DNA of 64,000 nt from Blastocladiella emersonii ATCC 22665 (Eukaryota; Fungi; Blastocladiomycota). The first letter of the stretch is position 1. Every line of letters starts with the position of its first letter. Positions 18,808-56,448 of the stretch are shown here, in pieces. Where the stretch lies: positions 1,178,001 through 1,242,000 of the forward strand of contig JANHCV010000009.1 of assembly GCA_025594325.1 (NCBI GenBank), in the 5' to 3' direction. The notes below the pieces were generated by a model. That model ran no database searches and was not told the DNA's origin. It saw only the letters and a program-made list of their open reading frames with translations. A program made the translations under genes and the position numbers.

Positions 18808-19701
18808 CGAGTGGTGGGAGAGCCAACTGCGAAGCGCGCCGATCCAGTACATTGGCCTCGCAGTCGGCACATCGCTACGTAACAGTCACGGTGACTATTA
18901 GCACACGTTTATTCATCACTCTGGAAGAGTCGCGGCGGTCCTCGTCCGTACAGATTCACGCGATGGATTAGGGCGCGGTCGCTCGCGAGGCCAAGCCGGA
19001 CGCCATCGACCTCCTCGCCTCGGTCAGCAAACGTCGCATGGGGTAGGCGTGGCCTCTCGTCCATCGTTTCAGCAAGTTGCGGGGTATGTTCATGTGCATC
19101 CATTGTTCGGCGCGGTCGGTGGCGAGAGAGCGCTCGTGCACGGTTGATTGACGCGTCTCGACATCCGCAGGCATCACGTGCGGGTGTCTCGCGCGCTTGC
19201 AGACGCGCGCCGTGCCCTTGAAAAACGGTGGCGCGCGCTGGATGTCAGCCCCGCACTGAGTCGAGTGAGCTAGAACACGTAGGACCCCGGACCCACAAAG
19301 TCCCGCCGCCTGCGATGAACGGAGCGCTTAGCTTTTGTCTCGGGCCTCCAGTTTTGCCTCCCTTGATGACTGATGCTCTCTTCGTGCATCATTTCTACGG
19401 ATGTTTTGTTCGAAGGTCGGAGGGCCAGGAAAAATGGTCGGACGCGACACCGACTCGAGCTTGGCGACGGCGTCGCTGGCGGTCGAGTCCGAGGTTCGTC
19501 CTCCCGACGAGCTTCGGTTCTGCATGAATACAGATCATGAGTCAGGAAACGAGCGGCAGGGGCATGCGCTGGAAAGGCGCGTTGTTCACTCGCACGTGCC
19601 CCCGACGCCCGGCCAAGTTTCGAGTTCGGTGGCGTCGCGGCTTACGGCCCGTCGGTGTGCTCCAAGCTCCCGTCCCGACCTCACCGCTGCATGTAAACCC
19701 A

Positions 19702-29368: not shown

Positions 29369-29746
29369 GTTTTAAATCCCGTCAACTTCATTGAGGCCAG
29401 CTGGCCATTACGCTTGCCTACCATTTCTTCAACACGTTCGTTCGTCGTTGACGATGATTCTGCAGTCCCCGTGAGCATGCATGAGCGAGTTGGCAACGCA
29501 CTGACCGGAACAGTGACTGTGAGATCAACTAAAACGGCGTTATCCGTGCCTACCACAATTCTTTCGCGTGGGATTACGGTGGAAACGCAGATGAGATGGA
29601 GAGAAGTGAGGGTTTCCTCGATGGGAGCGCGTCGTTCATTTGTGCCCAGCTCGCGTGATCGACAGCGGGACCTGACGCGTGCCCCGTTTCGAGCTCCAGC
29701 TCCCACCCGTCCTCCCGTTCGCCTCACCCCGATCGATGCAAAACAA

Positions 29747-32160: not shown

Positions 32161-32357
32161 CCATGACGCAGTCCATTGTTGGGTCGAATGTGCGTGTTGA
32201 GTCAATTTATTCTTGCCTGGATCCGCCCTTCAACAGGAGCGCGTGGTTCATTTGTGACCGCCTCGCGTGACCAAGCCTGCCAGTGGCGCTCACCTCGCTT
32301 CGAGCTCAAACTCTGACCCGCTCTCTTGCTCACCTCAACCAACTCGATGCAAAACGA

Positions 32358-34762
32358 ATGAAAATGGATCCGAAATTGGTGCAACACAATTCGACGGGCT
32401 TGCACGACCCAACGGTGGTGGCGACCAACTTGGCGCCCGTTGTTCCATCCTCGCTCACACGGCTTCCTGACGTTGCCCTCACGATCATTCTTCAGCAAGT
32501 GTGCCCGCGCTCGATTCTATGTGCTTCAACCCGTTCTCTTGCTTCGCTCGCGCGCATCCGCAGTATCAAGCGAGTGTGGGCGCCCGTCTTACTTGGGCGC
32601 CTCGCTCACCCGGACCTGTATCACGATTATGTTTTTGCCCGCGAGCCGCAGGCTGTAGACCGTATCGGCTGGGTCCTCGACCAGTCGTTCTTGAACTCGA
32701 AGCGAGACCAGCCTGTCGTTGGACTTGTCGCTCCCAACACCGATTTTCTACTGATCCTCTTGGAGTGCCTCCTCTTCGATCTCAACCGCCGTCATCACGG
32801 TAAAAACGCCACAGCAACCCTCGACGCACTGACTCGAACGGAAGTCCTCTATTCTCTGGGTCCACCTCTGGCTGCGAAATTGGACGGCGACTCGGTCGCC
32901 TGTTTTACGTTTCCAGGCGCTTCTGCTCTCCGCATTGCCATTTATGCGATCCCGAGCCACGACACTTGGCTGCTAACCCGAACTCTCAAGCTCTCGACGA
33001 CTCTCGCGCCTGATCTTGCCACGATGACAAGCTACTGCTTTTTGTGGTGGCTCATGTCCGTCGAAACTCAAAGTATCCTTTCCGCGCTCGGGTTGCATAC
33101 TGCGGCCATGGTGCTTCTGTCTTCGACCTCTTTTGCGGACCACTTGTTCACCCTCGCCGTTGTACACTGGGACGTTCGAATTTTCGAGCACATGCGCGAC
33201 TCTGGCCATGTTACGGACCCGCCATCTCTCGCACATACAATTGGCCCCAACACGCTGATGATGCTCGCGCTGCTCAACCTCTACCTCTCACCCGACCTGG
33301 GAGTACCCGCAACTGACATGGTTCCGATTTTCGACTACCTTCTTGCCTCATGCAAACCGGGCGTGCTTCGGACGCCACGCGGCATCCACGTTGCCGTCCT
33401 CTTGTGCCAATCCGATTCTCCCGCGCTTCTCATTCACGCCGCTCGCAAGCTGTCTGACCGTCTTGCCAACGATGTCGAAGACGGCGACCGCGCTGAGATC
33501 GCGCAAGCATTCAAGAGGTGGTCCAATGCAAATGCAGCGCTCGACGCGGACGACGTTGCGCTGCTGGCTGACCAGGGACTCGTTGACGATGCGGCGTAGG
33601 GGAGCATCATTATCATGGCCCTTCGCTGCTTTTCTTGTCGGTCGTCTTGGTTCGGGGCTTGAGGACGCGCTGGTTGAAGGTACGGTTTCCAACCCAATAC
33701 TGTTTAGCGAACTGTATTTGATTCTGACTACCATGCCTTATAGCCTTCTACCACAGCTCGTTGAGAGCTATGGAGGACGAGCGCAGCCTGCGCAACATCC
33801 TTGAATTTGCTTGCCAAAATCTTGGTGGCGAACCAGACAACGACTTTGTTTCTGAGCTCGTCGATCGATTGCTCGCAGTCATCTTGCATGTTGGAAACGG
33901 AGAAACTGACGAGAACAAACAGGGCGAAGCCATCTGCGATTTTACTAACCGGATCTTCGAAATTGCTTCCTACGCCAACCCGTGGCTCCTGTTTCGCATG
34001 CTTACCCTGCTTAGTCGAAGTGCCGACATGTCCCCCGACTCCGCCGAGCTCACGGTTCTTTCGTGGGTTCCTGCAATCTTTCTCGGCGACCCTCGGATTC
34101 GCGGCAAGGTACTTGATCTCATTCGCAAGGAGGGCACCGCGCGAGTATTTCTCGCCGCCATGCTGTGGGGCCAGTTGGGCGCATACCCTGCCACGTACCG
34201 GTTTGCACCAGGCTCTGGCCAAGGTTCGACTTACTTGTGCGATATCCGTTTCAGCGCCCTGTGGTTCAACGCCATGGAATCCTTGCATGGGCTCGGAACC
34301 ACAGCCACCACTCCAGGCTGGGTTCCGCGCGACCTGACGTCTTGCATCAGCGAGATCGCTTTTGACGACCCAGGGACTGCTCTGGTCTGTCGCCTGACGC
34401 ACGAAACCGAGATGTACGAGGGAGCCGAAGTTATTGACGACGATGAGTGCGACTGCGGCCACGTCCACCATCCGTCGCGGTTCATCAAAACAATGCGTTT
34501 TCTCGCCTGACACGAACTCGCAGCAACTCTTGGGTCGTGTGGCGAGGCGCAGCGCGTCCCGCTCGCGTTCTGGAAGCTGGTTCCCGATGGTGCGCTTGAT
34601 GGCGTCAAGGACGCGAGCTGGATCGCTGGCATGCTCGCCAAGCACCGGCGCGAGTCGTCTGATTCGACAGCGCTTGCGGTCGAGCAGGAGCTCCGACGCG
34701 TCGCGCCGCTGGCCACCCAGTCGCTCGAGTTCCTCGCTGCGGCCAAGCTCGCGCGCGAGTAA
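32358..34762 (+). pseudogene. Family B paralog 3; intron 33680-33743; stops and a deletion
   Basis: TAG at 33597 (paralogs AWG), a short deletion with frameshift near 33620, and TGA at 34508 where paralog 2 reads FLARHEL. Confidence 0.7.
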
Positions 34763-34934
34763 CCAGCGAGCCGTCGGTTTCTGTAGCGCGTGTACGCGCT
34801 GAATAATATATACTAGCTTTCGTTACTTTGTGCTTGCGGGCAGAGTCGCGCGCAGCTACGCTCACGCTGCCCTTGGATTGATGCTGAAGCGGCGGACAGG
34901 TTTATTCTCACGTGTCAACGTGTGTGTATTATGG

Positions 34935-36298: not shown

Positions 36299-36303
36299 AG
36301 AGA
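36299..36303. repeat. Left target-site duplication AGAGA
   Basis: The identical 5-mer abuts both element ends (36299-36303 and 51090-51094). Confidence 0.9.
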
Positions 36304-36329
36304 TGCCGTATCCCTTAAGGGATACGGCA
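36304..36329. other. Terminal 26-bp perfect palindrome TGCCGTATCCCTTAAGGGATACGGCA
   Basis: Read directly from the sequence; self-complementary. Confidence 0.95.
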
Positions 36330-37039
36330 CATGGCTGCCCTTAGGGACTTCGCCTCTGGACTCTATCCACCCAGGCTAACCCACGTGATATCTCATTGCT
36401 TACCCCGAGTGACTCATAATGAATATAGCGATATCCTTAGGGATTTCGCCACCCGGATCGGAGGCCGAAGGCCGAAGCAGGTGGGCGGGGGGAGGGGGGA
36501 GGGGGGAGCGGCGATCACATGCCCCAGACGCGCAACGCAATGCGACCACGGAGTCACTCTATGAGCCGGCCCACGACTTGGTCGGCGACTTGGTTGCAGC
36601 AATAGGCCCTTGAAGGCTCTCGGAATAATTCCACCAGAGGTCGGCGGTCAGTCCAAGAACGCGAGCAGCGACCCAGGTCAGCGACCAGCCCCAGATGGCT
36701 CTTGATGGCCGCCCCAAACTGGACCGGGTTGGAGCTCACTGGACCGGGTTCAAAGACAACCCGGTCCATGAAATTCGCTTGGGGTAAGCCATGGACCGGG
36801 TTGACCGGGTTGACCGGGTTGTTTAAAGTAACAGTGTAGTGAAAAGGGGGGGAGGGACCGCTCCAGTGCCACTCTTCCCCCCCCCCTTTCAAATCCCTAA
36901 AGGTCAATCGACCCCCTCAACCCGGTCCACCCAGTCCATGGCTTACCCCGAGCGAATTTCAATCGACTTGGTCCATTGAACCTGGTCCATGGCTTATGGC
37001 GAACGGCTCAAAGGGCAGGCAACCCGGTCCAGGCTGCCG
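36304..37039 (+). repeat. Left terminal inverted repeat (~736 bp)
   Basis: Reverse complement of 50364-51089 by eye alignment. Contains repeated GGACCGGGTT/AACCCGGTCC motifs and a 12-bp local duplication absent from the right copy. Confidence 0.9.
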
Positions 37040-37108
37040 TGAACGGTCGCTGCAAGTACAGTAAACAAAAGGTACAAAGTTGTATTCACAAAGGAGTCTC
37101 TGGACTCG

Positions 37109-39415
37109 TTACATCTTGTCGTCGGACAGCTCAACTGTGTACGGCCCGCGGTACTTGTAGATGCGAAGCTTGCGGCGATTCACGGTGCGACGCGTCACCT
37201 CAAAGAGCTCCTGCTTGTTGGCCGGGTTGACTTCGCGCTTGATGTACTCACCGAACTTGGTCTGCGACATGGACAAGCGGCCAGGGAAGCGCTTCTTGGC
37301 GTACTTGCGGTAAAACTCGTAGAACGCGTCTGCCTCGAGCTCCTGCACAACTTCGACCTGGCGCGTGTGGTCCAGGAGGTTGAGCGGGAAGCCGCCGTAC
37401 TCCATGATGTCCATGGCCGGCGCGGGAACCGGCTCCAGTGCCGCCATGATGGCGTTGTTGCGGGCCTGGTTGCGCGAGAACTTGGACAGCGTCAGGTGCA
37501 AGAGGTCGAGGCAGAGGATGTAGGTAAAGATCTCGTCGGCGTGCTCCTTGACAAACGCGTTGAGCTCGCCAAAGTAGTTCTCGTCCTGGCACTTGATGTT
37601 GGACATCTTGAGGACGAACTCGCGGCAACCAGTCTTGGTGAGTGGCAGCACATTGCAGTTGTTGGTCGCGATCATAAAGTTGTTGACGTTCTTGACCTCC
37701 TTGCGTTTCATGTACTTTTCGTTGACAATGAGCTTGTCCTCGGTGACCATGCTCTTGAGCTTGTCAAACGCGTTCTTGAGCTTGGCTGGCTTGCTGGAGG
37801 GCATCTTGTCAAACAGCACGAGCATCTTGTGGGCGATCTCCGAGTTGAACTCGCCCTTGAGCCACGTTGGCCCGTTGCTGATGGACACCGTGTTCTTGCG
37901 GCCAATAATGTACTGGGCCAGAAGGTGGTAGAACTTGCCCTTGCCCACGCCCTCAAGACCCGTCAGCAGCAGCATCACGCCATTGGCCTTGCCTGTGGTG
38001 AGCAGGCACTGGATCCACTTGAGGACATACGCGTACTCTTCCTTGTTGCCGCTGCAGACCACGTCGCAAATGTACTCGAGGTACATGACAATCAACTCGG
38101 GCTCAATGTCGTGGCCAAGGTCTGTGGCCGCAAACCCGTAGAACGTGTTAAAGTAGTCGACCACGAGGCCGTTCTGGTGAGACGGGCCCCACTGCGGTTT
38201 GTGCATGTCAAAGATGAGCGCCTTGACCTGTGGAGCGTACTTGATGGCCCCCGTGCTGCACGCCTTCTTCACGTTGTCCTCGCCGTTGGTGTCCCAGGCG
38301 TCAGTCACGGTGCGGCGAAAGTACATCTCGCCGACCAGGTCCTTGTGGACAAACTTGCCCACGTACTTGATCACGGCCTCCTTCCACGACTGCTTGTCCT
38401 CGTCCACCTTGCGGCTGAGGTAGTGGGTGATGACCTTGCCGATCCAGTTGTTGTCGTAGTGCGGGTCACGCTCAAGCTGCACGGCAACAAACGCGGCCGG
38501 GTCCTTGCAAAAGTTGGGGAGCTTGCCCTTGTCCTTGGACTCAGGCACCGTGATCTCCTTCTCGTCCCACTCCACCTCAAAGCCCGTGTACTTGAGCGTG
38601 TTGGCAGACATCTTGGCAAGCAGCTCGGCGTTGACGCAGTCGTCCTTCTTGACCATGAACCCGTCAAACACAAGCACGCTTGGCACAAGGTTGTTGGCAC
38701 GGGCAAAGTCAATGGCGCGCATCAGGAGGATTGACTTGACAGCCTGGAACAGGTTGGAGAGCACTGAGCCCTTGTTCATGGTCTTGTCTGCGCGAGGCTT
38801 GGACGCCTTGACAACGTGCGGAAAGTCCTTCTCAATCAGCTTGTACAGCGAGCCGTACAGCATGTGGTGGAAGGCTGCAAGCTTGGGGTGCACCGCGTTG
38901 CAGTTGACAAACTCATTGAACAGCATTGAGAGGAACTCCTGCTTATCCCCGAGCCCCCACTTGGCCAGCACGGCCGTGCGGTTGGCGAGGTACTGGTCAA
39001 AGACGCCGTGGCCAAGGTTGTAGTGCTGGCAGACGCCGCAGAGGATCGACGGCGCCGCGCCCTTCATGTCAAGGTCCTGGAGCACGCCCTTGGCCAGCGG
39101 GCTGCGGATGAGGTCCTTGCTGAAGCTCTGGAGCGACGGCGACGTGGCGTAGAGTCGGCCAAACTTCTTCTTGACCAAGGTTGACCGCGTGGTGAACAAG
39201 TACACGGTCTCCTTGCCATCGCCGTAGCTCGCCTTGGCCAGCGCCGCGTAGGCCTTGAGCTTCTTCTTGACCTCAGCGTCAATGCCCGAGTACCGCGCGC
39301 AGAGCCCGTCAAGCACGTCCTTGTTGTAGTACTCGTGCAGCACGACCTGGCCCGAGTCCATGAACATGGACTTGGTGTAGTCGAGGGTCTTGGCGATCTT
39401 GGTTAGCTGGGGCAT
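37109..39415 (-). CDS. TVpol (PolA-related primase-polymerase) fused to SF3 helicase (~768 aa), probably inactivated by point mutations
   Basis: N-terminal GRLY...SLQ, DLDMKGAAPSIL and VFDGFMV motifs; C-terminal Walker A GLEGVGKG, degenerate Walker B LFDKM and NFMIATNN. ATG 39415 (MPQLTK). Confidence 0.8.
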   Translation of the reverse strand: MPQLTKIAKTLDYTKSMFMDSGQVVLHEYYNKDVLDGLCARYSGIDAEVKKKLKAYAALAKASYGDGKETVYLFTTRSTLVKKKFGRLYATSPSLQSFSKDLIRSPLAKGVLQDLDMKGAAPSILCGVCQHYNLGHGVFDQYLANRTAVLAKWGLGDKQEFLSMLFNEFVNCNAVHPKLAAFHHMLYGSLYKLIEKDFPHVVKASKPRADKTMNKGSVLSNLFQAVKSILLMRAIDFARANNLVPSVLVFDGFMVKKDDCVNAELLAKMSANTLKYTGFEVEWDEKEITVPESKDKGKLPNFCKDPAAFVAVQLERDPHYDNNWIGKVITHYLSRKVDEDKQSWKEAVIKYVGKFVHKDLVGEMYFRRTVTDAWDTNGEDNVKKACSTGAIKYAPQVKALIFDMHKPQWGPSHQNGLVVDYFNTFYGFAATDLGHDIEPELIVMYLEYICDVVCSGNKEEYAYVLKWIQCLLTTGKANGVMLLLTGLEGVGKGKFYHLLAQYIIGRKNTVSISNGPTWLKGEFNSEIAHKMLVLFDKMPSSKPAKLKNAFDKLKSMVTEDKLIVNEKYMKRKEVKNVNNFMIATNNCNVLPLTKTGCREFVLKMSNIKCQDENYFGELNAFVKEHADEIFTYILCLDLLHLTLSKFSRNQARNNAIMAALEPVPAPAMDIMEYGGFPLNLLDHTRQVEVVQELEADAFYEFYRKYAKKRFPGRLSMSQTKFGEYIKREVNPANKQELFEVTRRTVNRRKLRIYKYRGPYTVELSDDKM

Positions 39416-39539
39416 GGCCGAGTAGTTACTGTTGAGCAAAGAAAAAAGCATTGTACTTTGATGCGGAAAAACGCAGTCTGGGAGCAGGGGCAGGGCCGTG
39501 TACTTGAAGTGCCGCAATTATTGCTATTGCCGCTGGCCA

Positions 39540-39630
39540 TGACCTGACCCTGACCCTGACCCAGCTGCCCTTGCGTGACCTGACCCTGACCCTGACCCAG
39601 CTGCCCTTGCGTGACCTGACCCTGACCCAG
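39540..39630. repeat. 36-bp tandem repeat x2.5 built of TGACCC hexamers
   Basis: Unit GACCTGACCCTGACCCTGACCCAGCTGCCCTTGCGT. Confidence 0.85.
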
Positions 39631-39640
39631 ACACGACCTC

Positions 39641-40070
39641 CCCCATGAGCCCGACTTGGGAGCCAATCGCGTCTCATGTCACGATCCTTGAACCGTGACC
39701 TGGGCAGTGACTGAGGGCAAAGTCACCAACCCCCCATGCTCCCAACTTGGGAGCCAATCGAGTCTCAGGTCACGATCCTTGAACCGTGACCTGGGCGGCG
39801 ACTGAGGGCAAAGTCACCAACCCCCCATGCTCCCAACTTGGGAGCCAATCGCGTCTCAGGTCACGATCCTTGAACCGTGACTTGGGCAGCGACTGAGGGC
39901 AAAGTCACCAACCCCCCATGCTCCCAACTTGGGAGCCAATCGCGTCTCAGGTCACAATCCTTGAACCGTGACCTGGGCAGCGACTGAGGGCAAAGTCACG
40001 GACCCCCCATGCTCCCGACTTGGGAGCCAGTAGGGTCCGAGGTCACAAACCTCTCAAACCGTGACCTGGG
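39641..40070. repeat. 91-bp tandem repeat x~4.7 with two internal palindromes per unit
   Basis: The CCCCATG anchor recurs at 91-bp spacing (ATG at 39645, 39736, 39827, 39918, 40009). Confidence 0.9.
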
Positions 40071-40195
40071 CCCTCCCACGGTCCATGACTTGCCACCACC
40101 CTGACCCTGACCCAGGCCCAGCTACCCAGAAAAAAGAACGTTGCGTTCAAACGCACTTGAGCCCATGGAGCCTTTTTGTTGACAGTCAGTAAACC

Positions 40196-41346
40196 ATGGC
40201 GCTTGACTCTCTTGCCTCCCAGGTCGCCATTGCCCTTGCTCAGCACTTTGCTGCCAATGTAGTGCACCAAGTGCTCGATGGTATCAAGCCGCTGCTGGCA
40301 TGCTGGCATCCTTTGACAAGCGGCTCAAGGGAGTTGAGACCAGCCTCGCCGCGCTGGCTGCAGTGTCACATAACTGCAATCACTGTCCCAATCACACCCC
40401 CGTCGACGAGTCTGGTGAGCCCATGGACACTGACCCCCAGGTCAAGTACGCGCAGATGACCAAGGAATCCATTGCGGCGTGCATCAACGCGCGTGTTCAG
40501 AACAAGCACGGGGAACTGGTTGAGCTGAGCGACACGGACAAGGCCAAGACATCCCGCGTGCTCTGTGCCTTTGCCAAGTCGGGCATAGACATTGAAGACG
40601 TTGATGCCGTGTCCAAAGCTGTGGCAGCGTACCGCGCGTCCAAGGGCAAGCAGGGGCTGCAGGTTGAGACGCTCAAGGCCCTGGCCAAGTACTGCACCTG
40701 GAATGGTCAGCCTGAACTCGGGGCCAAGTACACAGAGGCCAAGAAGCAGGACGCTGCCGACTTCCGCGACGCGTGCAAGGAACTCGAGTCTGGTGCGCTC
40801 CCAAGCCGTGACGCCATTTGCACTGCTATTGTTGATGCAAAGGGCTGGGACTCAGGCACGGGGCTTCTGCGTCTGTACCTCCAAGTTGTGAGTGCAGTGC
40901 GCAGCGACCCTGCGTTCCTGACCACAAAGCCAATCACTGGGTACCCGTACTACAACCCAGAGACCCAGATTCTGGCCGGCGATGTCATTGTCAAGACAGA
41001 GGGCTGTGGCTACAACTTCTCGCACACAGTTAGTGAGCCCAAGGTCGCCGCCGCTCTCAAGCGTATCATTGCCCAGCGTCTCGCCAAAGGCCATGACTTT
41101 GTCTTCAACAACTACACCCGCGAGGAGCTCAAGGACACCATGCTCTGCAAGAGGGTTAGCAACACCTGGTGCAAGTCAATTCACCAGGCTGCAGAGACAG
41201 TTGGCTTTGAGGATGGCGGCGTGGCAGTGATCCGCCGTATCTCCACCAGTGAGAACTTTGCTGCACAGCAAGCTATTGCTGACTGCGCACACAAGATGGG
41301 TCACAGCGTCCCTGTTGCCTTGACCTACTACATGACGCCTCAGTAA
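40196..41346 (+). CDS. Tyrosine recombinase / protelomerase-like protein; 8-bp duplication at 40294-40309 shifts the N-terminus
   Basis: Catalytic-order motifs AVRSD (R), VIVKT (K), VIRRI (R) and MGHSVPVALTYY (H...Y). The ORF from 40300 gives 348 aa; removing one GCTGGCAT copy gives a continuous ORF from ATG 40196. Confidence 0.7.
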
Positions 41347-41374
41347 TCCTCTTGTCTCCGCCTTTGTTAATACA

Positions 41375-42487
41375 ATGTATGCCCACAAAGAGCCGCTCAC
41401 AGACGCACAGCAAGCATTCCTGACAGACTTGTACTACAAGCACAGCCACGTAGGTGTTGGCATCCGTTGGCTCTTTGACATTGTGTCCAGAGAGAACACA
41501 GGGAAGCACATCTACTGCGCCCAGCTTGAGAGATGGCTCGGCGAACAGTCTGTGTGGCAGCAGTACAAACGCGCACCTCAGAAGCGCCAAGACATTTGAA
41601 GCATCAACTCAACAAGTCCTGGCTGCAACTTTCAGCTCGACCTCATTGACATGGGCGAAAACGGTACGTACAAGGGCTTCCATTACATTCTCACGTGTGT
41701 CAACCTGGCGAGCCGCCACGTCTACCTCCAACCCATCAAGACCAAGGACAAGACGCGGGAAGCATGGTCCAGCGTGGTTGCCAAGCACAGCCTTGCACCT
41801 GCCACGATCCAGACGGACAATGAGACCGAGTTCTTTGGCATAGAGGCCGGGACCGAGGCCAAGCACATCAAGGGCAAGGCAGGAGTGCCATACAGTCAAG
41901 GTGTTGTTGAGCGTATGAACGGGACCATCCGCCGGATGCTCACACCGTGGCTGTCCATCCCGGGCAACAACGACTGGCCCAAGCACCTCGAGACCATTGA
42001 ATCTGTGATCAACAGCAGCAAGTCGAGGGCCACGGGCAGGGCGCCCAACGAGTTCCATGACATGCCCCGCAAAATGGCCAAGGAAGAGCTCAAGGCAATC
42101 CAAGCTGCCAAGGGCAAGCCAGAAGGCAACCCTCTGAGCGCGTTGTTGAAGGTAGGGACCCAGGTCCAAGTCCGCGAGCCGTACAAGACTGCCATGGAGG
42201 CCAAGGGGAAGCCGGTCTGGTCGCCAACTGTGAGCCAGGCCCAGGTCGTGCGCAAGGGGTCGGGCGTGAGCAATCCAAGCTACAAGGTCCAAGGCCTCAA
42301 GGGCTTCTATCCACACAGCGACGTCCAGCCAGTCACAGCGACCCAGGACCCGCCAGCAAGGCAGCGCGTAGGTCCAAGTCTTCCAAGGCTCCCTGCTGCG
42401 CGCACCCCGGTCACGCCAAGGGAGCCCTCGACCCGGGTCAGGCGCGTCCCAGTCCAAGTCCAAGAAAAGTGGGACCTTGGGCTTTAG
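41375..42487 (+). pseudogene. Retroviral-type (rve, DDE) integrase with one in-frame TGA at 41597
   Basis: FQLDLIDM (D), IQTDNETEF (D), SQGVVERMNGTIRR (E), and a Polinton-type C-terminal LKVGTQVQV...WS...Y block. ORFs 41375-41599 and 41651-42487 are in the same frame. Confidence 0.9.
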
Positions 42488-44427
42488 AGCAGGGTCCAGT
42501 AGCTTTGAATGATGACCTGGCAGTTGTTGGCAATTGCGACCAATGGGATCCAGATGAAAGAGTAGCTCTTGGCCGCGTCAAGGTACTCAATGCTCGAGAA
42601 CTGAAGGAACTGGACGTTGCCTTCAGCGCGGCACCCAGTGACAAGCGACACTGCAATCATGTCCGTCATATTGTACAGCGCAAAGTTCACAGTGTGGGCT
42701 CCAGGGAGCGCGCCGTTTGCGTAGTAGCCCTTTGCATGGACGAGGTAGTAGCCACTGACAGGGGGTTTGACACATCCATTGATCACAGACGTGAACGCGC
42801 CTGCCGTGGACTGGAACGCAAAGGTGGCCGGGCCCGTCAATGCTGTGCCGCCAATGATCTTGCTGCCCGTGGTCACTCCGTTTGTAGAGCGGTGCTTGGC
42901 CTGAGCGACATACCAGGTCATGCCAGACTGCAAGTCAACGTACGCCTTGTTTGCCGCGTCGGTGCCTGCCACTGGAGTGAGGTCAAGGGTGAGCTGCCCT
43001 GTGAAGCGACCAGTGCCATTGACGCGGAGCTTTTCTGTGCCAAGCGTCGCCGAGCCCACAACCACGTTGCCGCCACCTGCCACAAGGGAGACCCCACCCG
43101 TGGTTGCAGACGCAATCTCAATGTTACCCGCCGCTGTGCATGCCAGGTTGCTTCGCAGTACGCCTGCCTGCTTAAAGTCGACGTACGTCAATGTATTGGC
43201 AGCCAAGTCAAAGACAAGGTTTGCGCTTGTGGCATTCTGGACCAGGACGTTGGGCACAGTCAGTTGCTTGCCAACTCCAAGACCACCAGCAATGGTGACT
43301 GCTCCAGTGCTTGATGTCAAACTGTCCGTCGTACTTGCAAAGGCAAAGGCAGCGCCAAGCCCAAGGGTGGACTGGGGGAGCGTGCCAGCGACCGAGGCTG
43401 CGCTCACCGCTGTGACCTTGGCCGAGACGTCGGGGAGTTGTGCCAGGTCAATGGTCCCTGCGAGCTTGGCTGAGTCAATGCCGGATGCCAGCTTGGCGTT
43501 GGTCAGGGTCCCGTCTGCAATGCGGGCAGGGTCAAGGATCCCAGTGAGCTTGACTGCTGACACGTCTGTAACCTTGGCGTCCGTGACTGCACCTGCTGCC
43601 AGGTGGGAAGATCCAATGGACCCGACGTTGAGCTTGGCCCCGTCAATGCCAGTTGCCAGCTTGGCGTTGGTCACGGCCGCGTCTGCCAGGACCGAGGTGC
43701 CAACTGTGCCCGCTGCCAGCTTGGACCCGTCGATGCCAGCTGCCAGTTTGGCGTTCGATACGGCACCGTCTGCCAGGGCTCCCGTCCCAATAGTCCCTGC
43801 AACGAGCTTGGACCCAGACACGGACGCGACCTTGGCATCTGTGACTGCCAGGTCAATGAGAGCCGCCGTGCCGACTGTGCCTGCCACAAGCTTGGACCCA
43901 GACACGGACGCGACCTTGGCATCAGTCACTGAGCCGTCTGCCAGGACTGAGGTCCCAACTGTGCCTGCCACGAGCTTGGACCCGGACACGGACGCAACCT
44001 TGGCATCTGTCACTGAGCCGTCTGCCAGGACCGAGGTTCCAACGGCTGGGAGGTTGGACGCACTGAGCACGCCCACGACCTTGGACGCAGACACAGTGTC
44101 CAGCTGAGCATCGACGAGCTTGCCTGTGACCTGCCCTGCTGTAATCGTGGCGACCTTGTTGGCCGTGACGCTGGCTGGGAGCAGCTGTACCGTGCCAACC
44201 GACTTGACATAGAGCCCAGCTGCGCCCACGCCAAGGGTCTGGTTGTCGACCTTGGTCGAGACAGTGGTCCCTGAGACTGCCACGCCAGGGCCAGCAACAG
44301 GTGCGCCAACCGTGGCGTACACGGCACTGATGGCCGCGTCAACGTAGGCCTTGGACACGTCCGGGACCCCCGTGGTAGACACGGTCGGAGACGCAGTACT
44401 TGAGACGTTAAAGATATTCTTGACCAT
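42484..44427 (-). CDS. Putative virion fibre/spike protein (647 aa) with repeated shaft and possible C1q/TNF-like head
   Basis: Repeats such as VGTSVLADGSVTDAKVASVSGSKLVAGT, a SKAYVD/NKAYVD motif near both ends, and a beta-rich C-terminus with PPVSGYYLVHAKG. Confidence 0.65.
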   Translation of the reverse strand: MVKNIFNVSSTASPTVSTTGVPDVSKAYVDAAISAVYATVGAPVAGPGVAVSGTTVSTKVDNQTLGVGAAGLYVKSVGTVQLLPASVTANKVATITAGQVTGKLVDAQLDTVSASKVVGVLSASNLPAVGTSVLADGSVTDAKVASVSGSKLVAGTVGTSVLADGSVTDAKVASVSGSKLVAGTVGTAALIDLAVTDAKVASVSGSKLVAGTIGTGALADGAVSNAKLAAGIDGSKLAAGTVGTSVLADAAVTNAKLATGIDGAKLNVGSIGSSHLAAGAVTDAKVTDVSAVKLTGILDPARIADGTLTNAKLASGIDSAKLAGTIDLAQLPDVSAKVTAVSAASVAGTLPQSTLGLGAAFAFASTTDSLTSSTGAVTIAGGLGVGKQLTVPNVLVQNATSANLVFDLAANTLTYVDFKQAGVLRSNLACTAAGNIEIASATTGGVSLVAGGGNVVVGSATLGTEKLRVNGTGRFTGQLTLDLTPVAGTDAANKAYVDLQSGMTWYVAQAKHRSTNGVTTGSKIIGGTALTGPATFAFQSTAGAFTSVINGCVKPPVSGYYLVHAKGYYANGALPGAHTVNFALYNMTDMIAVSLVTGCRAEGNVQFLQFSSIEYLDAAKSYSFIWIPLVAIANNCQVIIQSYWTLL

Positions 44428-44447
44428 GTTTAACCTTAAGCAACAGA

Positions 44448-44699
44448 ATGATTTCCAGCGACCATGACCTGAGCCTGGACAAGTGGCGGGAGCACCTCGC
44501 CGGGACCATGCCCGTTCCAAGCAGCTGGTACAACAAGAGCGACAAGGACAAGGCCAAGTGGCTACGGAAGCGCGACTGCAAGGCCAACCGGTACACGCAC
44601 GTCGACAACGAGGCAGCGCGGGCCGAACGGGTCAAGATCCGGATCTACAAGGCACTCAACGCCAAGCGCCGGGACCAGGGGGCAAATAGCACCGTCTGA
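44448..44699 (+). CDS. Small basic hypothetical viral protein (83 aa)
   Basis: ATG-started ORF with the same codon style as neighbouring viral genes, divergent from the fibre gene. Confidence 0.5.
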   Translation: MISSDHDLSLDKWREHLAGTMPVPSSWYNKSDKDKAKWLRKRDCKANRYTHVDNEAARAERVKIRIYKALNAKRRDQGANSTV

Positions 44700-44811
44700 G
44701 GGACAAAAGGCACCTGCCACGGGGAAAAAGGTACGCCCAATGGTGCAAGATGCACGGGGAAAAAGGTACCGACAGGGGGACGCTTTATTTTTGGTCCATA
44801 CAGTAACTATC

Positions 44812-46527
44812 ATGGGCCAAAGAACAGTACCAGATCTACTTGCAAGAGTGACCAATGCAACCAGCGGGCGCATCACGGCCGAGCACCTTGCAGGGCAGAA
44901 GCTCAAGGCAACCATTGATGGCCGCAAGTACACGTTCCCCAATGCCAAAGAGCTCCTTGACGTCTGGGTGCCTTACATCCTTGCCTTTGACTACAAGGTG
45001 ACGCCCGAGAGCTATGCCAACGACTTTGGCTGCAAACAAGGCGACTCGCTGTTCTACCTCAGGCACCAGGACGGCGTCACTAGGTACAAGGTCAAGGACC
45101 TCCAGGAGCACGTCCAAGATACGCTTAAAGCGTGGGAAGAGCACCAGGCAACAGGCAAGGTCACTTGAGTCCCAGTTGCTCCACCAGTGGCAAGCCCCAG
45201 ACCAGAGGCCCCCAAGTTGGCCATGGACAGCAACAGGGGCAGCAGCGAAGAGGAACGCGACGAGCTGGCAGAAGAGATCTCACAAGCCCTGGACGTCATT
45301 GATGAGGACGCTGTACCAGACCACTTGCTCCCTGTGCCCGTCCGGCCAGTCATGCCCAAGCAGTACCCAGTCGAGGCCAGCGACTATGTTGGTCAAGACA
45401 TTGAAGAGTACGGCGCCATGATCCCTGGCCAGTACCTGATCCAGAATGACAATGACGGTGGCAACGACTCGCCCCCAAGGCTTGACAACGGCACCCGCAA
45501 CCTCGTGGTCATGCCACCAAGCTACGGCCCGGACGTGGCACAGCGGCAAGGCGTGTACAACGAGGGTCACGTCCACCCAGCCATGGACGAGGCACGCATG
45601 ATCGAGGGCTCCAAGGACTTGCAGGTCTACAACCCCGAGCGGGCGCTGACAACCACGGACAACATGGAGGTCGACGTTGTCCAGAACTTTCAACAGTTTA
45701 ACCAGTTTGTGTACAACAGCTCCACGCAGCAGAACACGCAGAACGTCAACATGCGGCAGTTCATCACCCAGTACAAGAACAACTACTACGAGCAGAACGT
45801 GGACATGCGACAGCAAATCCTGGTCCAGTACAACAATGACCCGAACGTCATGGCTGCGCTCAAGCTCATTGCCTCGCAGTTTGCCGGGTCCCAGGTCATG
45901 CAGTACCAGGCGTACCAGGCGCTCATCAAGCAGTCGGTGGCCGCTCAGGGACTGGCCATGGACGCATTTGCCAACCTCGCGTCCGGGATTGTGGACACGC
46001 TCCGAGCCAAACGCAACGACTTTGTCCGCCAGATTGACGCTGGCAACTGCGCGCTTGTGTCTGAGATTGCCACGGGCATGTCCTCGGCTCTCAGCAACCA
46101 GCAGGTGCTCATGAACCAACTTGCAAGCGGCGTCCAGGGCGCGATCCAAGGGCAGACCCAGAGCAACAAGGCCATGACCAAGACGCTCCAAGACCTTGGG
46201 TCCAAGCTGGACACGATCCCTGCACCCCAAGTCATTGTCCAGCCTGCCGACACAAGCGGCCTCAAGGCCATGATCAGGGAGCTGGCCGCGCAAAACAATT
46301 CTGGCGGTAGTTCTAAGAAGACCGACATGCTCCTCGAACAGATCCTCAAGCAACTGGGCTACAGGAAGCCAACTGACGCGAAGCTGTTCACAGACAAGCG
46401 GGCAGCGGGTAGCGGGCTGACAGCGCCCAAGATCCAGCGTCACCAGAAGATCCCTGAGCGGCCTGTCAAGCAGGTCCGCGAGACCCCAAGGCGCAGCGGC
46501 ATTGTGCTTGACCTCGGCTGGGACTGA
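44812..46527 (+). pseudogene. Hypothetical viral protein (~571 codons) with one in-frame TGA at 45166
   Basis: ORFs 44740-45168 and 45187-46527 are in the same frame, separated only by TGA (KVT*VPVAPP). N/Q-rich central part. Confidence 0.6.
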
Positions 46528-46553
46528 CGCCCTTTTTTGTTGGCAGTCTTTAA

Positions 46554-47351
46554 ATGTACGACATTGTTGCCATTGACAACGGCTTTACACGCAACGACAA
46601 CGGCGAACCGCTGCCAATCCCCAAGCACCCGTTCACCATGAACGTCATTGGTGCCAAGGGTCAGGGCAAGTCGACGCTGATCGCAAACATGGTCTGCTTC
46701 CCACACTTTTACAAGGGCCAGTTTGACAACGTCTGGGTCTTTAACCCGACGTTCCACGCCGACAACGAGTACGAGTACATTGCCAGTCAACCAATCCTGT
46801 GACCGCCCAAGAAGGAGCGCAACGTGCTGGACCCCCAGGAGCGCGACCCGGACCGGCTCAAGATCAAGCCAGGGTGCATTGTCACGGACCCCGAGCAGTT
46901 CATCCCAACCCTGCTCAAGATGCGCCAGGACCTGACCAAGACATTTGAAGAGTCTGGCAAGAAGGCGCTCCAGGACCAGCTGCTGATCATCGACAACGTG
47001 CTTGGGCTCAAGCTGCTGAGCCACAGAACGCTGACCAACTTTCTGTGCAACTCGCGGCACTTGAAGATCAGCTGCATCATTGGCGTCCAGCAGTGGTGTG
47101 CCCTGCCCAAGACTCTGCGCATCAATTGCAGCTACAGCGTCGTCTACCCAATCTATGACAAGACCAAGGTCCAGACGCTGCACAAGGAGATTGGGTCGCA
47201 GTTCGACCTCAAGGAGTTTGAGGCCATCATTGAACAGCTCTTTGACACGCATACTGGCAACACAAAGCGACGCTTCCTGGGCGTCAACAACCAGAACCCG
47301 CCCAAGTACCGGCTCGTAGACAGCTTCAGCAAGTGGATTGTCAAGGGATAG
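46554..47351 (+). pseudogene. FtsK/HerA-family (A32-like) genome packaging ATPase with in-frame TGA at 46800
   Basis: Walker A GAKGQGKST, degenerate Walker B LLIIDN, and SRHLKISCIIGVQ...LPKTLRIN. The two ORFs are in one frame. Confidence 0.9.
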
Positions 47352-47390
47352 ACCGCCAACTTTTTTTGTTGCAGTGTTCTAAACTAAACC

Positions 47391-48611
47391 ATGTCCAGTA
47401 CCAACGCCCAGTTCTCGCAGGTCCTGTCCAAGACTCTCCCTCCCGAGATGTCATTCAACCTGCCCAAGGAGTCCGTCTATGCCGAGCGCCAGACCGTCCA
47501 GTTCACGGCTCAGGGCGGCCCTGAGTTTGCTCCTGGCAACAGCATAAGCGTCCTGCTCCCGCCGCGCGACGACATGATGGACACGCACTGTACTTTCCTG
47601 CAGTTCTCGGCCAAGACCACAGACGCCAACGTCGCTTTTTGCAATGGTATCTTCAGCGTCATTGACCGTGTCCGCATCTACAGCGCGTCTGGTGCCCTAC
47701 TCGAAGAGCTCCCGTACTACAACCTGCATCAGCGCATTGAGGCCGACGTGACGGTCCCCCAGTACCTCAAGGACTCGTGTCTTGGCGTGGCACAGGGCTA
47801 CTTTGCGTCTGGCGCTGACAAGTTTGCCGTCTCGTCTGGGCTGCACCGGTACATGCTGCCCATCAAGTCCGCCCTGCTGGCGAACCAGAAGCACCTCCCA
47901 ATGAAGTACATGGGCGGCATCCGCGTTGAGTTCACCCTTGCACCTGGCAGCGACGCCTGCGTGGTCAAGAACAATGCAATCCCGGGCTACACAGTCAAGG
48001 ACGTCTGCATTGTCTCGGACCTGATCAAGCTCAACGACCAGCAGATCGCGGTCATGGACGCGGCCTTCAAGAAGCAGGGCCTCAAGCTCTTTGGCACGAC
48101 CTACAACCACCACTTCCTGAACTACTCAGTGCCCAACTCGACGCTCAACATCTCGGACCGCTCGGCCTCACAGAAAGACATCCTGCTGTCGTTCCGCAAC
48201 AATGCCGTGCTCAACGACAATGCCAAGGACTCGTTCCTTTGTGCCAAGACCATTACATCGTACCAGTTCAGCGTGGCCGGCCAACTCTTCCCTCAGTGAC
48301 CCATCCGCTGTGACGACTATGCGTCCGAGGCGTTTGTTGAGCTGACCAATGCCTTCCATGGCCACGTCATTGGCGCTGGCCTCACAGTTGACAAGTTCAA
48401 CGCGCCGGCCGAGGGTACCTTTGTTGTCGGCCGTGACCTTGAGTCAAGTCGCACCGTGGTCAGCGGCGACAAGTCTTGCAAGAGCCAGGCCGTGGACATG
48501 CAGGTGATCCTGACTTCAAGCGTGGCCCCGAACCAGCGCGTGGACGCCTTCATTGGCATCGACGTGGTCTACGAGTTCCTGCCAACCGGCGAGATCAACA
48601 TCTACAAGTAA
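47391..48611 (+). pseudogene. PLV-type double jelly-roll major capsid protein (406 codons) with in-frame TGA at 48297
   Basis: SVIDRVRIYSASGALLEELPYYNL near the N-terminus. The frame continues past the TGA through GTFVVGRDLE...SG to EINIYK*. Located between ATPase and minor capsid gene. Confidence 0.8.
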
Positions 48612-48653
48612 CGGCCCTGTCCTTTCTTTTCTTGCGTAGAGTTAAACCCCGCC

Positions 48654-48920
48654 ATGATCTTCCGTAACCTCTGGACCAACTTTAGCAATGTGCTCGGCCA
48701 GGTTGGGTCCTTTGTCAACAAACACATGCCAACCGTCCTCAAAGGCGTCAAGACCGTGTCCAAGTTCTTTGAGCGGTCGCACAACCCCGCCGTGAGCTCC
48801 ATTGCGCAGATGGTGACCAAGGGCGCGGACCTTGCCCAAGACATTCACACCTGGTACAACCAACCAACAAGCGAGATCTTTGAGGCAGACGCTGACGACA
48901 CGGGGACAGCTGTACAATAA
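48654..48920 (+). CDS. Small protein (88 aa) with N-terminal amphipathic helix
   Basis: MIFRNLWTNFSNVLGQVGSFVNKHMPTVLKGVKTVSKFF; sits between MCP and minor capsid gene. Confidence 0.6.
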   Translation: MIFRNLWTNFSNVLGQVGSFVNKHMPTVLKGVKTVSKFFERSHNPAVSSIAQMVTKGADLAQDIHTWYNQPTSEIFEADADDTGTAVQ

Positions 48921-48938
48921 ATTGTTGTCTTTGTTTAA

Positions 48939-49670
48939 ATGTCCGAGTACAAGACGCTGACCATCTGCAGCCGTGACCTCAAGAACGGCATCCTGTACCT
49001 ACCACAACCCCTGTCCGTGCGCGGCGTCAAGGTCAACTCGGCGTACCTCTGCAACAGCTGGCACAAGGCCAACAAAGTGTACCTGACCCAGAGCCGTGGC
49101 GCGCTGACGTTCCCGGGCACCATCACCGTCCCTGATGGCAACTACACGGTCGAGACGTTCACGGCCACGCTCAAGAGCCTGCTCAACAACGCGCCCTCAG
49201 CGTACCTCTGGCAGGGCACATGGGACGTCCAGGTTGACTCGACTACCCAGAAGATGCGCCTGGCCAACGACACGGTTGACTTTACAATTGGAACAGGGAC
49301 GGCGTCGCTGAACGTCCACATGGGCTTTGTTGGAGCGTATGGCTACAGCAAGGTCCAGTACGCGTCGGCGCTGGTCAACATCTCGCCCATCAACCTGCTT
49401 CACGTCTACTCGCGCAACCTTGGCACCCGGCTTGCGGACAACATGTACAGCGCGTACCCACAAGACAACGGCGTACTTTGTAGCATCCACGTCACGCAAC
49501 CCTTTGGCAGCTGGTTTGAGCATCGACCACACATGGGTGACTACTTTCGCTTTGACGCGCAGGGACAGGCCCAGCAGATTGACTGTATTGACATTGACGT
49601 GGTAGACAAGAACCTGCGCTCTGTCAACTTTCTCGGCCAACCCTTCTACGTCGAGCTCGCGTTCATCTGA
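48939..49670 (+). CDS. Minor capsid (penton) protein (243 aa)
   Basis: VPDGNYT insertion motif and C-terminal IDCIDIDVVDKNLRSVNFLGQPFYVELAF pattern typical of PLV/virophage pentons. Confidence 0.8.
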   Translation: MSEYKTLTICSRDLKNGILYLPQPLSVRGVKVNSAYLCNSWHKANKVYLTQSRGALTFPGTITVPDGNYTVETFTATLKSLLNNAPSAYLWQGTWDVQVDSTTQKMRLANDTVDFTIGTGTASLNVHMGFVGAYGYSKVQYASALVNISPINLLHVYSRNLGTRLADNMYSAYPQDNGVLCSIHVTQPFGSWFEHRPHMGDYFRFDAQGQAQQIDCIDIDVVDKNLRSVNFLGQPFYVELAFI

Positions 49671-49701
49671 CGTTGACTTTAATTGTTGTCGTACTGTAAA
49701 C

Positions 49702-49797
49702 ATGATCCTCGAGACGCTCCTTGTTGCAACCAACGCCCTGATCCTCGTAGCCAACCTGGCCATTGTTGGGTACAAAGCAAAGTATTCCGCGCCGTAG
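49702..49797 (+). CDS. Predicted 31-aa single-pass membrane micropeptide
   Basis: MILETLLVATNALILVANLAIVGYKAKYSAP*, preceded by the TTGTTG...TAAAC-ATG motif seen upstream of other viral genes. Confidence 0.5.
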   Translation: MILETLLVATNALILVANLAIVGYKAKYSAP

Positions 49798-50035
49798 AGT
49801 AAGCAAAAACATGTGCTTTAAATTCTTTCTTCAAAGGCATAGTAAGACACAGGACAATGAATACTGGCTCTACTGCATCAACGCCCCGCGCACCTTCCAC
49901 GAGCATCCCTTGGACTGGCCGTCCGGGCCCCCAGTCAACAGCCAACTACACGGCCATCCACAACGTGGCCCTGCCAGGTGCCAAGGTTGTGTACACTGTC
50001 TGCTTTGAATAGATCCTTCAAGTTAACTTGGTTAG

Positions 50036-50215
50036 CTACCTTGAAGCCTTTACTGGTCGCTCTCAGACTACCCGCCAGTATGTGTACTTGTGCCCACAGC
50101 ACGGGTACACAACTTGGACCCACAGCAGCTCATTGTCATGGACCCAGCTGGGAGCATCATAGTGATCGCATGGCGGCTTGGGCAGGGGGACGATCTCTTT
50201 GATACAGCCTCGCAT
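50036..50215 (-). CDS. Small Cys/His-containing viral protein, possibly with internal TGA at 50063
   Basis: MRGCIKEIVPLPKPPCDHYDAPSWVHDNELLWVQVVYPCCGHKYTYWRVV*ERPVKASR*; upstream TTGTT...GTAACT-ATG motif. Confidence 0.35.
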
Positions 50216-50363
50216 AGTTACAGTAGTCCAACAAAGTTTAAATTGACAAACGCATTCAACGCACTTGGCATGACGTAGCAACGGGACACACTACGGCATT
50301 GTGGACCCGACCAGGGCCCCTGCCCACTTTTGAACAGCTCGCCGTAAGCCATGGACCGGGTCG

Positions 50364-51089
50364 CGGCAGCCTGGACCGGGTTGCCTGCCCTTTGAACCGT
50401 TCGCCATAAGCCATGGACCAGGTTCAATGGACCAAGTCGATTGAAATTCGTTCGGGGTAAGCCATGGACTGGGTGGACTGGGTTGAGGGGGTCGATTGAC
50501 GTTTAGGGATTTGAAAGGGGGGGGGGGAAGAGTGGCACTGGAGCGGTCCCTCCCCCCCTTTTCACTACACTGTTACTTTAAAACAACCCGGTCAACCCGG
50601 TCAACCCAGTCCATGGCTTACCCCAAGCGAATTTCATGGACCGGGTTGTCTTTGAACCCGGTCCAGTGAGCTCCAACCCGGTCCAGTTTGGGGCGGCCAT
50701 CGAGAGCCATCTGGGGCTGGTCGCCAACCTGGGTCGCTGCTCGCGTTCTTGGACTGACCGCCGACCTCTGGTGGAATTATTCCGAGAGCCTTCAAGGGCC
50801 TATTGCCGCGACCAAGTCGTGGGCCGGCTCATAGAGTGACTCCGTGGTCGCGTTGCGTTGCACGTCTGGGGCATGTGATCGCCGCTCCCCCCTCCCCCCT
50901 CCCCCCGCCCACCTGCTTCGGCCTTCGGCCTCCGATCCGGGTGGCGAAATCCCTAAGGATATCGCTATATTCATTATGAGTCACTCGGGGTAAGCAATGA
51001 GATATCACGTGGGTTAGCCTGGGTGGATAGAGTCCAGAGGCGAAGTCCCTAAGGGCAGCCGTGTGCCGTATCCCTTAAGGGATACGGCA
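50364..51089 (-). repeat. Right terminal inverted repeat (~726 bp) ending in the 26-bp palindrome (51064-51089)
   Basis: Reverse complement of 36304-37039. Confidence 0.9.
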
Positions 51090-51094
51090 AGAGA
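51090..51094. repeat. Right target-site duplication AGAGA
   Basis: Matches 36299-36303. Confidence 0.9.
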
Positions 51095-56200: not shown

Positions 56201-56448
56201 CAGAAACCCCAGCTTGAGCGCGAATTCAGCTCGACAGAAACTCAGCCTACTGCTGAGAACGTACGTTTGAGCAGGTACGCACTGGCATCGCCCGAAGCCA
56301 AACATGATGGAGCAGGCGAAGCAGCGCATCTTTCATGTGCACGAGTTACACGTGTGTGGCTGGGGCTTGAGGCTTGAAACTTGAACGCCGACTCCTGGCG
56401 ACTTCGACTCTCCCCTCCTATGAACGCTCGCCGGCACATGTAAAACAA

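Follow-up and report, generated by a model that had tools for sequence, protein, structure and literature searches.

TpCpG-biased C-to-T decay of a likely Polinton-like virus integrated in the genome of Blastocladiella emersonii

Introduction

What has eroded the viral DNA at this locus? The 64,000-nucleotide stretch of Blastocladiella emersonii ATCC 22665 analyzed here (contig JANHCV010000009.1, positions 1,178,001–1,242,000; hereafter the window) contains a 14.8-kb element at window positions 36304–51089, likely a Polinton-like virus, which is inserted in the host genome and carries genes interrupted by in-frame TGA codons. A preliminary description of the locus proposed that the host methylates CpG on the insert and that the resulting mutations disarm the provirus. 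Here, we show that the element is subject to CpG-directed C-to-T decay with a strong, strand-asymmetric preference for TpCpG. The cause that we favor, with slightly better than an even chance of being right, lies in a host DNMT1-type methyltransferase: it would mark the viral interior, preferring cytosines that follow a pyrimidine, and the marked bases would then deaminate to T.

Results

CpG depletion ends at the borders of the insert

The ratio of observed to expected CpG was 0.79 in the element, alongside TpG and CpA ratios of 1.34–1.38. The same ratio was 1.23 in the left host flank, 1.27 in the right host flank, 1.24 in the host gene RPC1, and 1.05 in the part of a second element (PLV-2) that lies in the window; the element is thus below both of the comparators, RPC1 and PLV-2, named in the preliminary description. 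The TCG index drops from approximately 0.6–0.7 to 0.2–0.35 at the element borders. The two features concerned are as follows:

21088–25704: host RPC1; residues 175–900 have 100% identity to an annotated B. emersonii ATCC 22665 protein.
37100–50250, both strands: zone of TpCpG loss (TCG 307 versus TTG 785), with a sharp edge against the host flanks.

These data show that CpG-directed C-to-T decay is limited to the viral insert.

Mutations derived in this copy concentrate at TpCpG

The element is multi-copy, with a summed contig depth mostly of 900–6700 inside versus approximately 150–220 on the flanks (run X1; these sums are not a true copy number). Other copies were represented by the contigs of four sequencing runs from one sample in one study. 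The DNA-level set combined the best 40 of 1826 rows with the best 40 of 66 rows, giving 75 distinct places; rows were picked by support, independent of context, and polarity takes the majority of copies as ancestral. CpG accounted for 58 of the 66 transitions derived in this copy, against a background of 22% of C in CpG (p = 1e-29), and the CpG enrichment that the preliminary description expected from a comparison with other copies was therefore found. The remaining nine rows were three transversions and six places with T or A in the other copies (four of the six at CpG). In run X1, 42 of 48 places were A>G or T>C, approximately 1.4% of the stretch 44300–47400.

The CpG hits were distributed unevenly by 5′ base: TCG 32, CCG 11, GCG 10, and ACG 5, where 10.5, 13.0, 17.5, and 16.9 were expected (p = 5e-12). 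TCG alone made up 32 of the 58 against an expected 10.5 (p = 3e-10). Between 44300 and 47400, the cytosines hit among the rows listed were 20/90 for TCG, 5/94 for CCG, 4/123 for GCG, and 0/115 for ACG. A Neurospora-type CpA preference was not seen, with 3 of the 66 derived transitions at CpA plus one at ACA, versus 58 at CpG. Coding CpG hits were synonymous in 23 of 56 cases versus 42.6% expected (p = 0.89), which shows that this recent layer accumulated without purifying selection. Differences between the two terminal inverted repeats (TIRs) of the element also lie at CpG, in exactly 10 of 13 cases (p = 7e-7), matching the by-eye count in the preliminary description and including its pair changed in opposite directions, at 36679/36680.

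Sister proteins carry independent and recurrent changes of the same kind

At least 16 distinct annotated proteins contain the putative capsid; the main cluster has 26 members, 15 of them among the matches listed. The capsid gene in the window matches the annotated ATCC 22665 protein P0123, save for a 19-residue gap over the stop codon described below. The public annotation of P0123, P0125, P0148, P0160, and the P0133–P0151 set shortens some copies by in-frame gaps, here over the stop, and merges the small open frame with the minor capsid frame. A more distant subfamily is present in the same sample, as contigs of single-copy depth approximately 80–85% identical to the element, which agrees with capsids found at 84–86% identity.

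Ten capsid proteins (with this copy and five more distant ones excluded) and 8 of 10 proteins of the minor-capsid type were compared with the window codons. The comparison excluded blocks shorter than 25 residues, the edges of blocks, thinly covered columns, and changes that create stops. The gene caller had already filtered these proteins, and a variant shared by several copies counts once for each of them. Missense changes per site-copy were 36/343 (10.5%) at TCG, 8/296 (2.7%) at CCG, 9/448 (2.0%) at ACG, and 3/555 (0.5%) at GCG. In the same comparison, non-CpG C>T reached 18/3684 (0.5%), T>C 0.2%, and transversions 17/28720 (0.06%). When only sites were counted, 21 of 37 TCG sites were hit versus 15 of 147 other CpG sites (p = 7e-9). 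An excess on the template strand (24 versus 15) was rejected as a real bias because it is explained by site availability (CGA 60 versus TCG 37).

Each of 11 copies of one gene carried 2–12 CpG-type changes (dispersion p = 0.22, with limited power), and both strands were hit within copies (runs p = 0.37). Repeat-induced point mutation (RIP) makes many mutations per event and strikes copies unevenly. A single burst of this kind was rejected on the absence of over-dispersion and on the mixed strands, and the decay looks gradual rather than burst-like. Pairs of variants that conflict with a single tree made up 58 of 120 CpG–CpG pairs and 0 of 15 non-CpG pairs; shared CpG variants that fit no one tree indicate recurrent hits.

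The bias is strand-asymmetric and has an older, synonymous layer

In dyads that pair TCG with a purine-preceded cytosine, the cytosine on the T side was hit 16 times and that on the purine side three times (p = 0.004). For the TCGT/ACGA dyad, the hits were 12 versus 1, with values of 0.73 versus 0.23 at synonymous sites. The proportion of synonymous T for C before G was 0.73, 0.57, 0.23, and 0.25 after T, C, A, and G, respectively, compared with 0.11, 0.12, 0.05, and 0.14 before bases other than G. The template strand gave the same order (0.68, 0.54, 0.20, 0.25), so a cause in the genetic code or codon usage is ruled out. TT[C]G was the most converted context, at 0.94. Partial TpCpG matches, which a process of the Microbotryum type would leave unelevated, were raised here (CCG 0.57 versus 0.12; ACG 0.23 versus 0.05). 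The corresponding values for RPC1 were 0.00–0.07, and two diverged host gene families lacked such a contrast; one single-copy host frame had a small excess (10/50 versus 2/63).

Most of this loss is old. In three genes within 44809–47351, 42 of 54 synonymous TCG sites read TTG, and no more than 15 T>C places of whatever kind in that interval set this copy apart from the others (70% level), which means that most of the synonymous loss is common to other copies. The lineage would therefore have met the process before, with silent sites purged and coding sites kept by selection.

Stops and altered motifs in the element genes

The coding features of the element are as follows:

37109–39415, − strand: polymerase/primase-helicase, 768 aa, open frame, with E227K (38737), Walker B E537K (37807), and further CpG missense changes.
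40196–41346, + strand: gene without a family match, frameshifted by eight extra bases at 40293.
41375–42487, + strand: rve-type integrase, with TGA at 41597 in a TCGA context and N at 41702.
42484–44427, − strand: fiber-like repeat protein, 647 aa, open frame (Pfam tail tip fiber, E 2.5e-9; PHROG tail fiber).
44812–46527, + strand: hypothetical gene, approximately 571 codons, with an in-frame TGA at 45166 (TCGA context).
46554–47351, + strand: A32-like packaging ATPase, with TGA at 46800 and Walker B DN at 46992–46997.
47391–48611, + strand: putative major capsid protein, 406 codons, with TGA at 48297.
48654–48920, + strand: small open frame, 88 aa.
48939–49670, + strand: putative minor capsid protein, 243 aa, open frame; identity by position alone.

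In-frame TGA codons are present at 41597, 45166, 46800, and 48297, and the preliminary description judged all four compatible with an origin from CGA. That origin is borne out at 41597, 46800, and 48297, where contigs of other copies read C and the codon is CGA (Arg), whereas support at 45166 is indirect. Trp, the residue that the preliminary description had said would count against it, does not occupy the three sites, and recoding of TGA as Trp is ruled out because the copies have Arg. In the annotated sister capsid proteins, the codon at 48297 is Arg in 8 of 10 and Gln in 2 of 10. At 45166, the frames are continuous on both sides, and the site is absent among the best 40 of 66 rows. The half of the gene after this TGA lacks the T-rich upstream motif that is present at the eight other + strand starts examined; an annotated sister protein spans both halves, but with a 16-residue gap exactly over the site. 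The TGA at 45166 is likely to be a premature stop, with a short intron as the alternative. A further candidate at 50063 proved to be a minus-strand TGA at which read-through gains only eight codons. Only six in-frame CGA codons are left in the element genes, so three to four stops represent a large share of those possible.

The altered motif residues fared differently from one another. Helicase Walker B reads DK here and DE in 9 of 10 Allomyces homologs, as had been supposed. For FQAVK in the polymerase, the other copies (38737), 8 of 10 Allomyces homologs, and PLV-2 all have E; FQAVE is a conserved motif, and calling it catalytic was an overstatement. In the ATPase, Walker B reads DN (46995), a candidate change from DD. 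The integrase CVN motif, also put forward as a damaged catalytic site, aligns with AVH of human immunodeficiency virus (HIV) integrase rather than with a catalytic acid; this candidate was discarded, and TDN and VVERMN, the counterparts of the HIV motifs, are undamaged. The putative minor capsid protein has three CpG missense changes relative to sister copies. Frameshifts, described as nearly absent, number one: the eight extra bases at 40293, missing from the contigs of all four runs. “Disarming” is an apt term for this copy, but the family kept spreading under the process, given that the bulk of the synonymous CpG loss is of older date and common to other copies.

Three Allomyces macrogynus proteins, P0154, P0155, and P0157, have E>K at FQAVE (two copies) and G>S in an FDG motif (two copies), which indicates that CpG decay of these viruses reaches a second genus.

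The element is likely a Polinton-like virus

Outside the genes, the element and its insertion site have the following features:

36299–36303: left target-site duplication, AGAGA, the same five bases as at 51090–51094.
36304–37040, + strand: left TIR, approximately 737 bp, beginning with a perfect 26-bp palindrome.
39640–40094, + strand: tandem array of 91-bp units (self-comparison family D2).
50363–51089, − strand: right TIR.
51090–51094: right target-site duplication, AGAGA.

The TIRs (737 bp) and the 5-bp duplication are both Polinton-like hallmarks, and the gene content adds an A32-type ATPase (Pfam Pox_A32, E 6e-11, 42.6 bits versus a cut-off of 22.8), a primase-helicase replication gene, and an integrase whose match is weak (Pfam rve, 19.1 bits, under the cut-off of 32.6; retroviral integrases, E 0.002, in an alignment that pairs the TDN and VVE motifs). 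The replication protein matches Pfam DUF5906 (E 9e-17) and a PHROG primase (E 2e-22), both in its C-terminal helicase part, and its N-terminal part is presumably PolA-like. It is 42–47% identical to Allomyces proteins, and its relatives were found in Allomyces only (five matches), with no same-family polymerase from B. emersonii among the matches returned. From these sequence features, the element is likely a Polinton-like virus with a putative capsid fold. We take the major capsid assignment from gene position, size, and familiar motifs; that protein had no Pfam, PHROG, or PDB sequence match beyond chance PadR matches, its structure model had a predicted local distance difference test score of 36, and the searches run, including metagenome contigs, detected no relatives outside B. 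emersonii. The putative minor capsid protein had no family match in Pfam or PHROG, the viral contigs searched held no ATPase relatives, and an exact-identity look-up of seven window proteins returned no match. The C-terminal GHS...YY of the 40196–41346 product had no database match; we assume a resemblance to tyrosine recombinases.

Each end of the element (36304–36329 and 51064–51089) is a perfect 26-bp palindrome in which a hairpin is possible. Short CCTGAC-rich repeats at 39540–39630 lie beside the 91-bp array, between the divergent polymerase and + strand genes, and these repeats possibly form an origin or control region. A T-rich motif ending A-rich before the ATG occurs upstream of 40196, 41375, 44812, 46554, 47391, 48654, 48939, and 49702 and is likely a viral promoter or terminator signal.

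PLV-2 is of the same type as the first element but unrelated to it; it starts at a palindromic end near 59912 and continues past the window end at 64000; its 800-codon polymerase-helicase frame is open, its CpG ratio is the 1.05 given above, and CCGG is depleted. Two tandem host gene families, with copies approximately 60–78% identical, lie at 19–16865, 19400–20200, and 56374–59284 and at 27881–34800; the frames tested had no Pfam match.

Discussion

A DNMT1-type mark as the favored cause

Under the favored explanation, integrated copies would be marked by a DNMT1-type enzyme that prefers C after a pyrimidine, and the marked cytosines would deaminate to T little by little, on both strands and mostly at TpCpG. 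The 5′ bias may be set at the methylation step, by strand-biased marking or hemimethylation, or in the active site of the enzyme. Silencing would precede mutation, which would be a slow side effect of it. Judging by the older synonymous layer, the lineage would have gone through the host process many times, with some copies intact enough to spread again. Taking all explanations together, 5-methylcytosine (5mC) in some form is quite probably involved.

Related fungi have candidate enzymes: a published table gives three DNMT1 genes each for Allomyces macrogynus and Catenaria anguillulae, and zero DNMT4/RID, DIM2, and DNMT5 (PMC12344493). Parts of a giant virus integrated in one Allomyces strain are reported to carry CpG methylation (PMC13533422). 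Mammalian DNMT1 has strand-level flank preferences with a 10–25-fold range, in which G at −1 is disfavored and T at −2 favored (PMC10359454); in the element, GCG is likewise among the lowest contexts and TT[C]G the highest (0.94). In early-diverging fungi, 5mC is usually said to have been almost entirely replaced by N6-methyladenine (PMC13297926). The supplement of the B. emersonii genome paper, which covers sensory genes only, has no PF00145 entry (PMC9730499). Errors of Pol epsilon are ruled out as the source of the bias, as the excess reported for the wild-type enzyme is at GCG (PMC11549043).

Several points weigh against this explanation. Only 2 of the 10 CpG differences between the TIRs are at TCG, where 62% were expected (p = 0.009), and TCG depletion is far milder in the TIRs than in the interior, with TCG:TTG near 1:1; homogenization between the ends, or lower marking there, is a possible reason. 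Allomyces polymerase copies, compared as residues only, are CpG-polarized (reverse N>D/K>E 0/532), and TCG stands out only slightly in them: D>N/E>K 2.5%, G>S/R 2.3%, A>T 1.4%, and V>I/M 1.2%, with T>M at 2.8% versus S>L at 2.1%. PLV-2 shows the context order on the template strand only, in small counts, and all of our read data come from contigs of a single sample and study. The table with the DNMT1 counts also gives Cryptococcus zero DNMT5 (PMC12344493), which is contradicted elsewhere (10.1101/149385), so its zeros are unsafe. A provirus without CpG methylation is reported for a second Allomyces strain (PMC13533422), global 5mC in Catenaria is given as very low (PMC8298701), and mammalian DNMT1 favors C, not T, at −1 (PMC10359454). 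Finally, both the presence of 5mC and DNMT1 as its writer are inferred. Of the original proposal of host CpG methylation, the confinement of CpG-directed decay to the insert holds, the methylation itself is a deduction, and plain deamination of symmetric 5mCpG misfits the TpCpG bias within dyads.

Alternative explanations

That earlier, simple model, in which CpG is methylated symmetrically and then deaminates by passive hydrolysis without any additional preference, accounts for the CpG enrichment, the involvement of both strands, and the gradual neutral accumulation; the TIR differences and the Allomyces copies fit it, and CpG signatures in fungal repeats are reported to accompany DNMT1 class IIA genes (PMC4352252). 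However, unrepaired 5mC deamination in human cells follows the order ACG>CCG>GCG>TCG (PMC11564873), whereas TCG comes first in the element interior by approximately 4- to 20-fold, and symmetric marking alone cannot yield 12 TCGT versus 1 ACGA hits in one dyad. We consider it improbable. The dyad asymmetry and the reversed order together leave strand-biased marking, the mutating step, or repair as the source of the bias. Sunlight on symmetrically methylated DNA could supply such a step, as ultraviolet dimers at T-5mC-G and C-5mC-G deaminate fast and the bias would be photochemical. This predicts both the large excess of YCG over RCG and the within-dyad asymmetry that were observed; formation of the T-mC-G dimer and deamination dependent on the 3′ G are documented (PMC4245940), and B. 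emersonii, which is phototactic and lives in ponds and soil, has two annotated photolyase/cryptochrome genes (PMC9730499). Nevertheless, there was no tandem CC>TT among the 75 DNA differences listed, the non-CpG transitions were four pyrimidine-first and four purine-first (small numbers), the bias is missing from the TIRs, and ACG and GCG still exceed background at synonymous sites, so that this explanation appears unlikely.

Similarly unlikely, although a shade less so, is a methylation-independent or RIP-like enzyme, either a TpC-preferring deaminase or a methyltransferase that deaminates repeats, as proposed for Pucciniomycotina. The same trinucleotide is affected in rusts and anther smuts (PMC3318451), the asymmetry within dyads would place the bias in the mutating step, and integrated viruses of one chlorarachniophyte are reported to show targeted hypermutation, with a different spectrum (10.64898/2026.01.13.699255). 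Yet the load is Poisson-like with mixed strands and no bursts, RID and DIM-2 are not listed for relatives in the table cited above (PMC12344493), and TpC outside CpG is not raised (TCH 0.11 versus GCH 0.14). The TIRs, which as a nearly identical pair form the most obvious repeat, also have fewer hits at TCG (4% versus 22%, p = 0.004). The least probable source, in our judgment very improbable, is an artifact or a bias intrinsic to the virus, such as assembly errors, codon preference, or viral polymerase errors. The window's own alleles are mostly unseen in the contigs, which lose rare variants, and the synonymous depletion is partly inherited; both would be compatible with such a source. Against it, sister proteins at other loci carry the independent and recurrent CpG changes described above, the published strain assembly was made from PacBio HiFi reads with Illumina polishing (PMC9730499), and a replicating virus would not be expected to transmit stops or Walker B changes.

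Relation to known systems

The element shares with the endogenized Polinton-like viruses of protists a length of approximately 15 kb, TIRs, a target duplication, an A32 ATPase, an rve integrase, a primase-helicase, and many copies (PMC10120064). It differs in its fungal host and in a capsid whose relatives were detected, in our searches, in B. emersonii only. The large survey of these protist viruses left out Fungi (PMC10120064), and a literature search found no joint mention of B. emersonii and Polinton; the element adds a fungal host for this group. It also illustrates host erosion of proviruses that still persist.

Methylation of endogenous viruses is already known (PMC11244446, PMC12344493). 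Silencing by 5mC is described for adintoviruses and giant viruses in Amoebidium (PMC11244446), for viruses in Acanthamoeba and others (PMC12344493), and for Mycodnaviridae in Allomyces (PMC13533422); as in those systems, a CpG-directed mark, or the trace of one, here separates an integrated medium or large DNA virus from the genes of its host. Methylation and silencing were measured there, and these sources report no TpCpG spectrum, whereas the element offers the mutational trace. Our literature search for Blastocladiella DNA methylation with transposable elements and CpG since 2015 found nothing. Passive 5mC deamination (single-base-substitution signatures SBS1/SBS96; PMC11564873) is likewise a clock-like CpG>TpG process on both strands, but with the opposite 5′ preference, TCG being lowest there and highest in the element. 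RIP in Neurospora and other Pezizomycotina depends on RID (PMC4352252, PMC7296669) and has in common with the element the C:G to T:A decay of repeats and the creation of stops; the element differs in its CpG rather than CpA context, in a load that is not burst-like, and in that RID is unlisted in its relatives.

The closest likeness is to the TpCpG hypermutation of Pucciniomycotina (Microbotryum, Puccinia, Melampsora, and Rhodotorula), in which repeated mobile DNA shows a C-to-T excess at TpCpG, counted on both strands, with no RID homolog found and long-term depletion of sites; its cause was left open between an active RIP-like process and unusual methylation (PMC3318451). As there, TpCpG is the rate outlier per site in the element (not in the TIRs), and the excess is in repeats, with RPC1 and the diverged host families unaffected. 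The B. emersonii case differs in its blastocladialean host, far from basidiomycetes, in its target, an integrated DNA virus, and in having CCG as a clear second target (0.57), spared TIRs, and an accumulation shown to be Poisson-like. The new part is the TpCpG-biased, strand-asymmetric, and gradual character of the decay in a B. emersonii provirus; we found no report of a TpCpG signature in Blastocladiomycota, in a search that was thin on subscription papers and bioRxiv supplements, so an earlier mention is possible. Since this trace lies on a young virus with many copies, and its blastocladialean host can be cultured and has a long-read assembly, the open cause becomes testable. More tentatively, and with considerable doubt, TpCpG hypermutation might be a DNMT1-linked, RID-independent genome defense that extends from rusts to a very early fungal branch, acting with strand asymmetry on integrated DNA viruses and shaping a Polinton-like virus through many cycles of decay and escape. 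If so, the search for the enzyme behind the TpCpG signature, which B. emersonii shares with the rusts and anther smuts, would have its first culturable model in this fungus.

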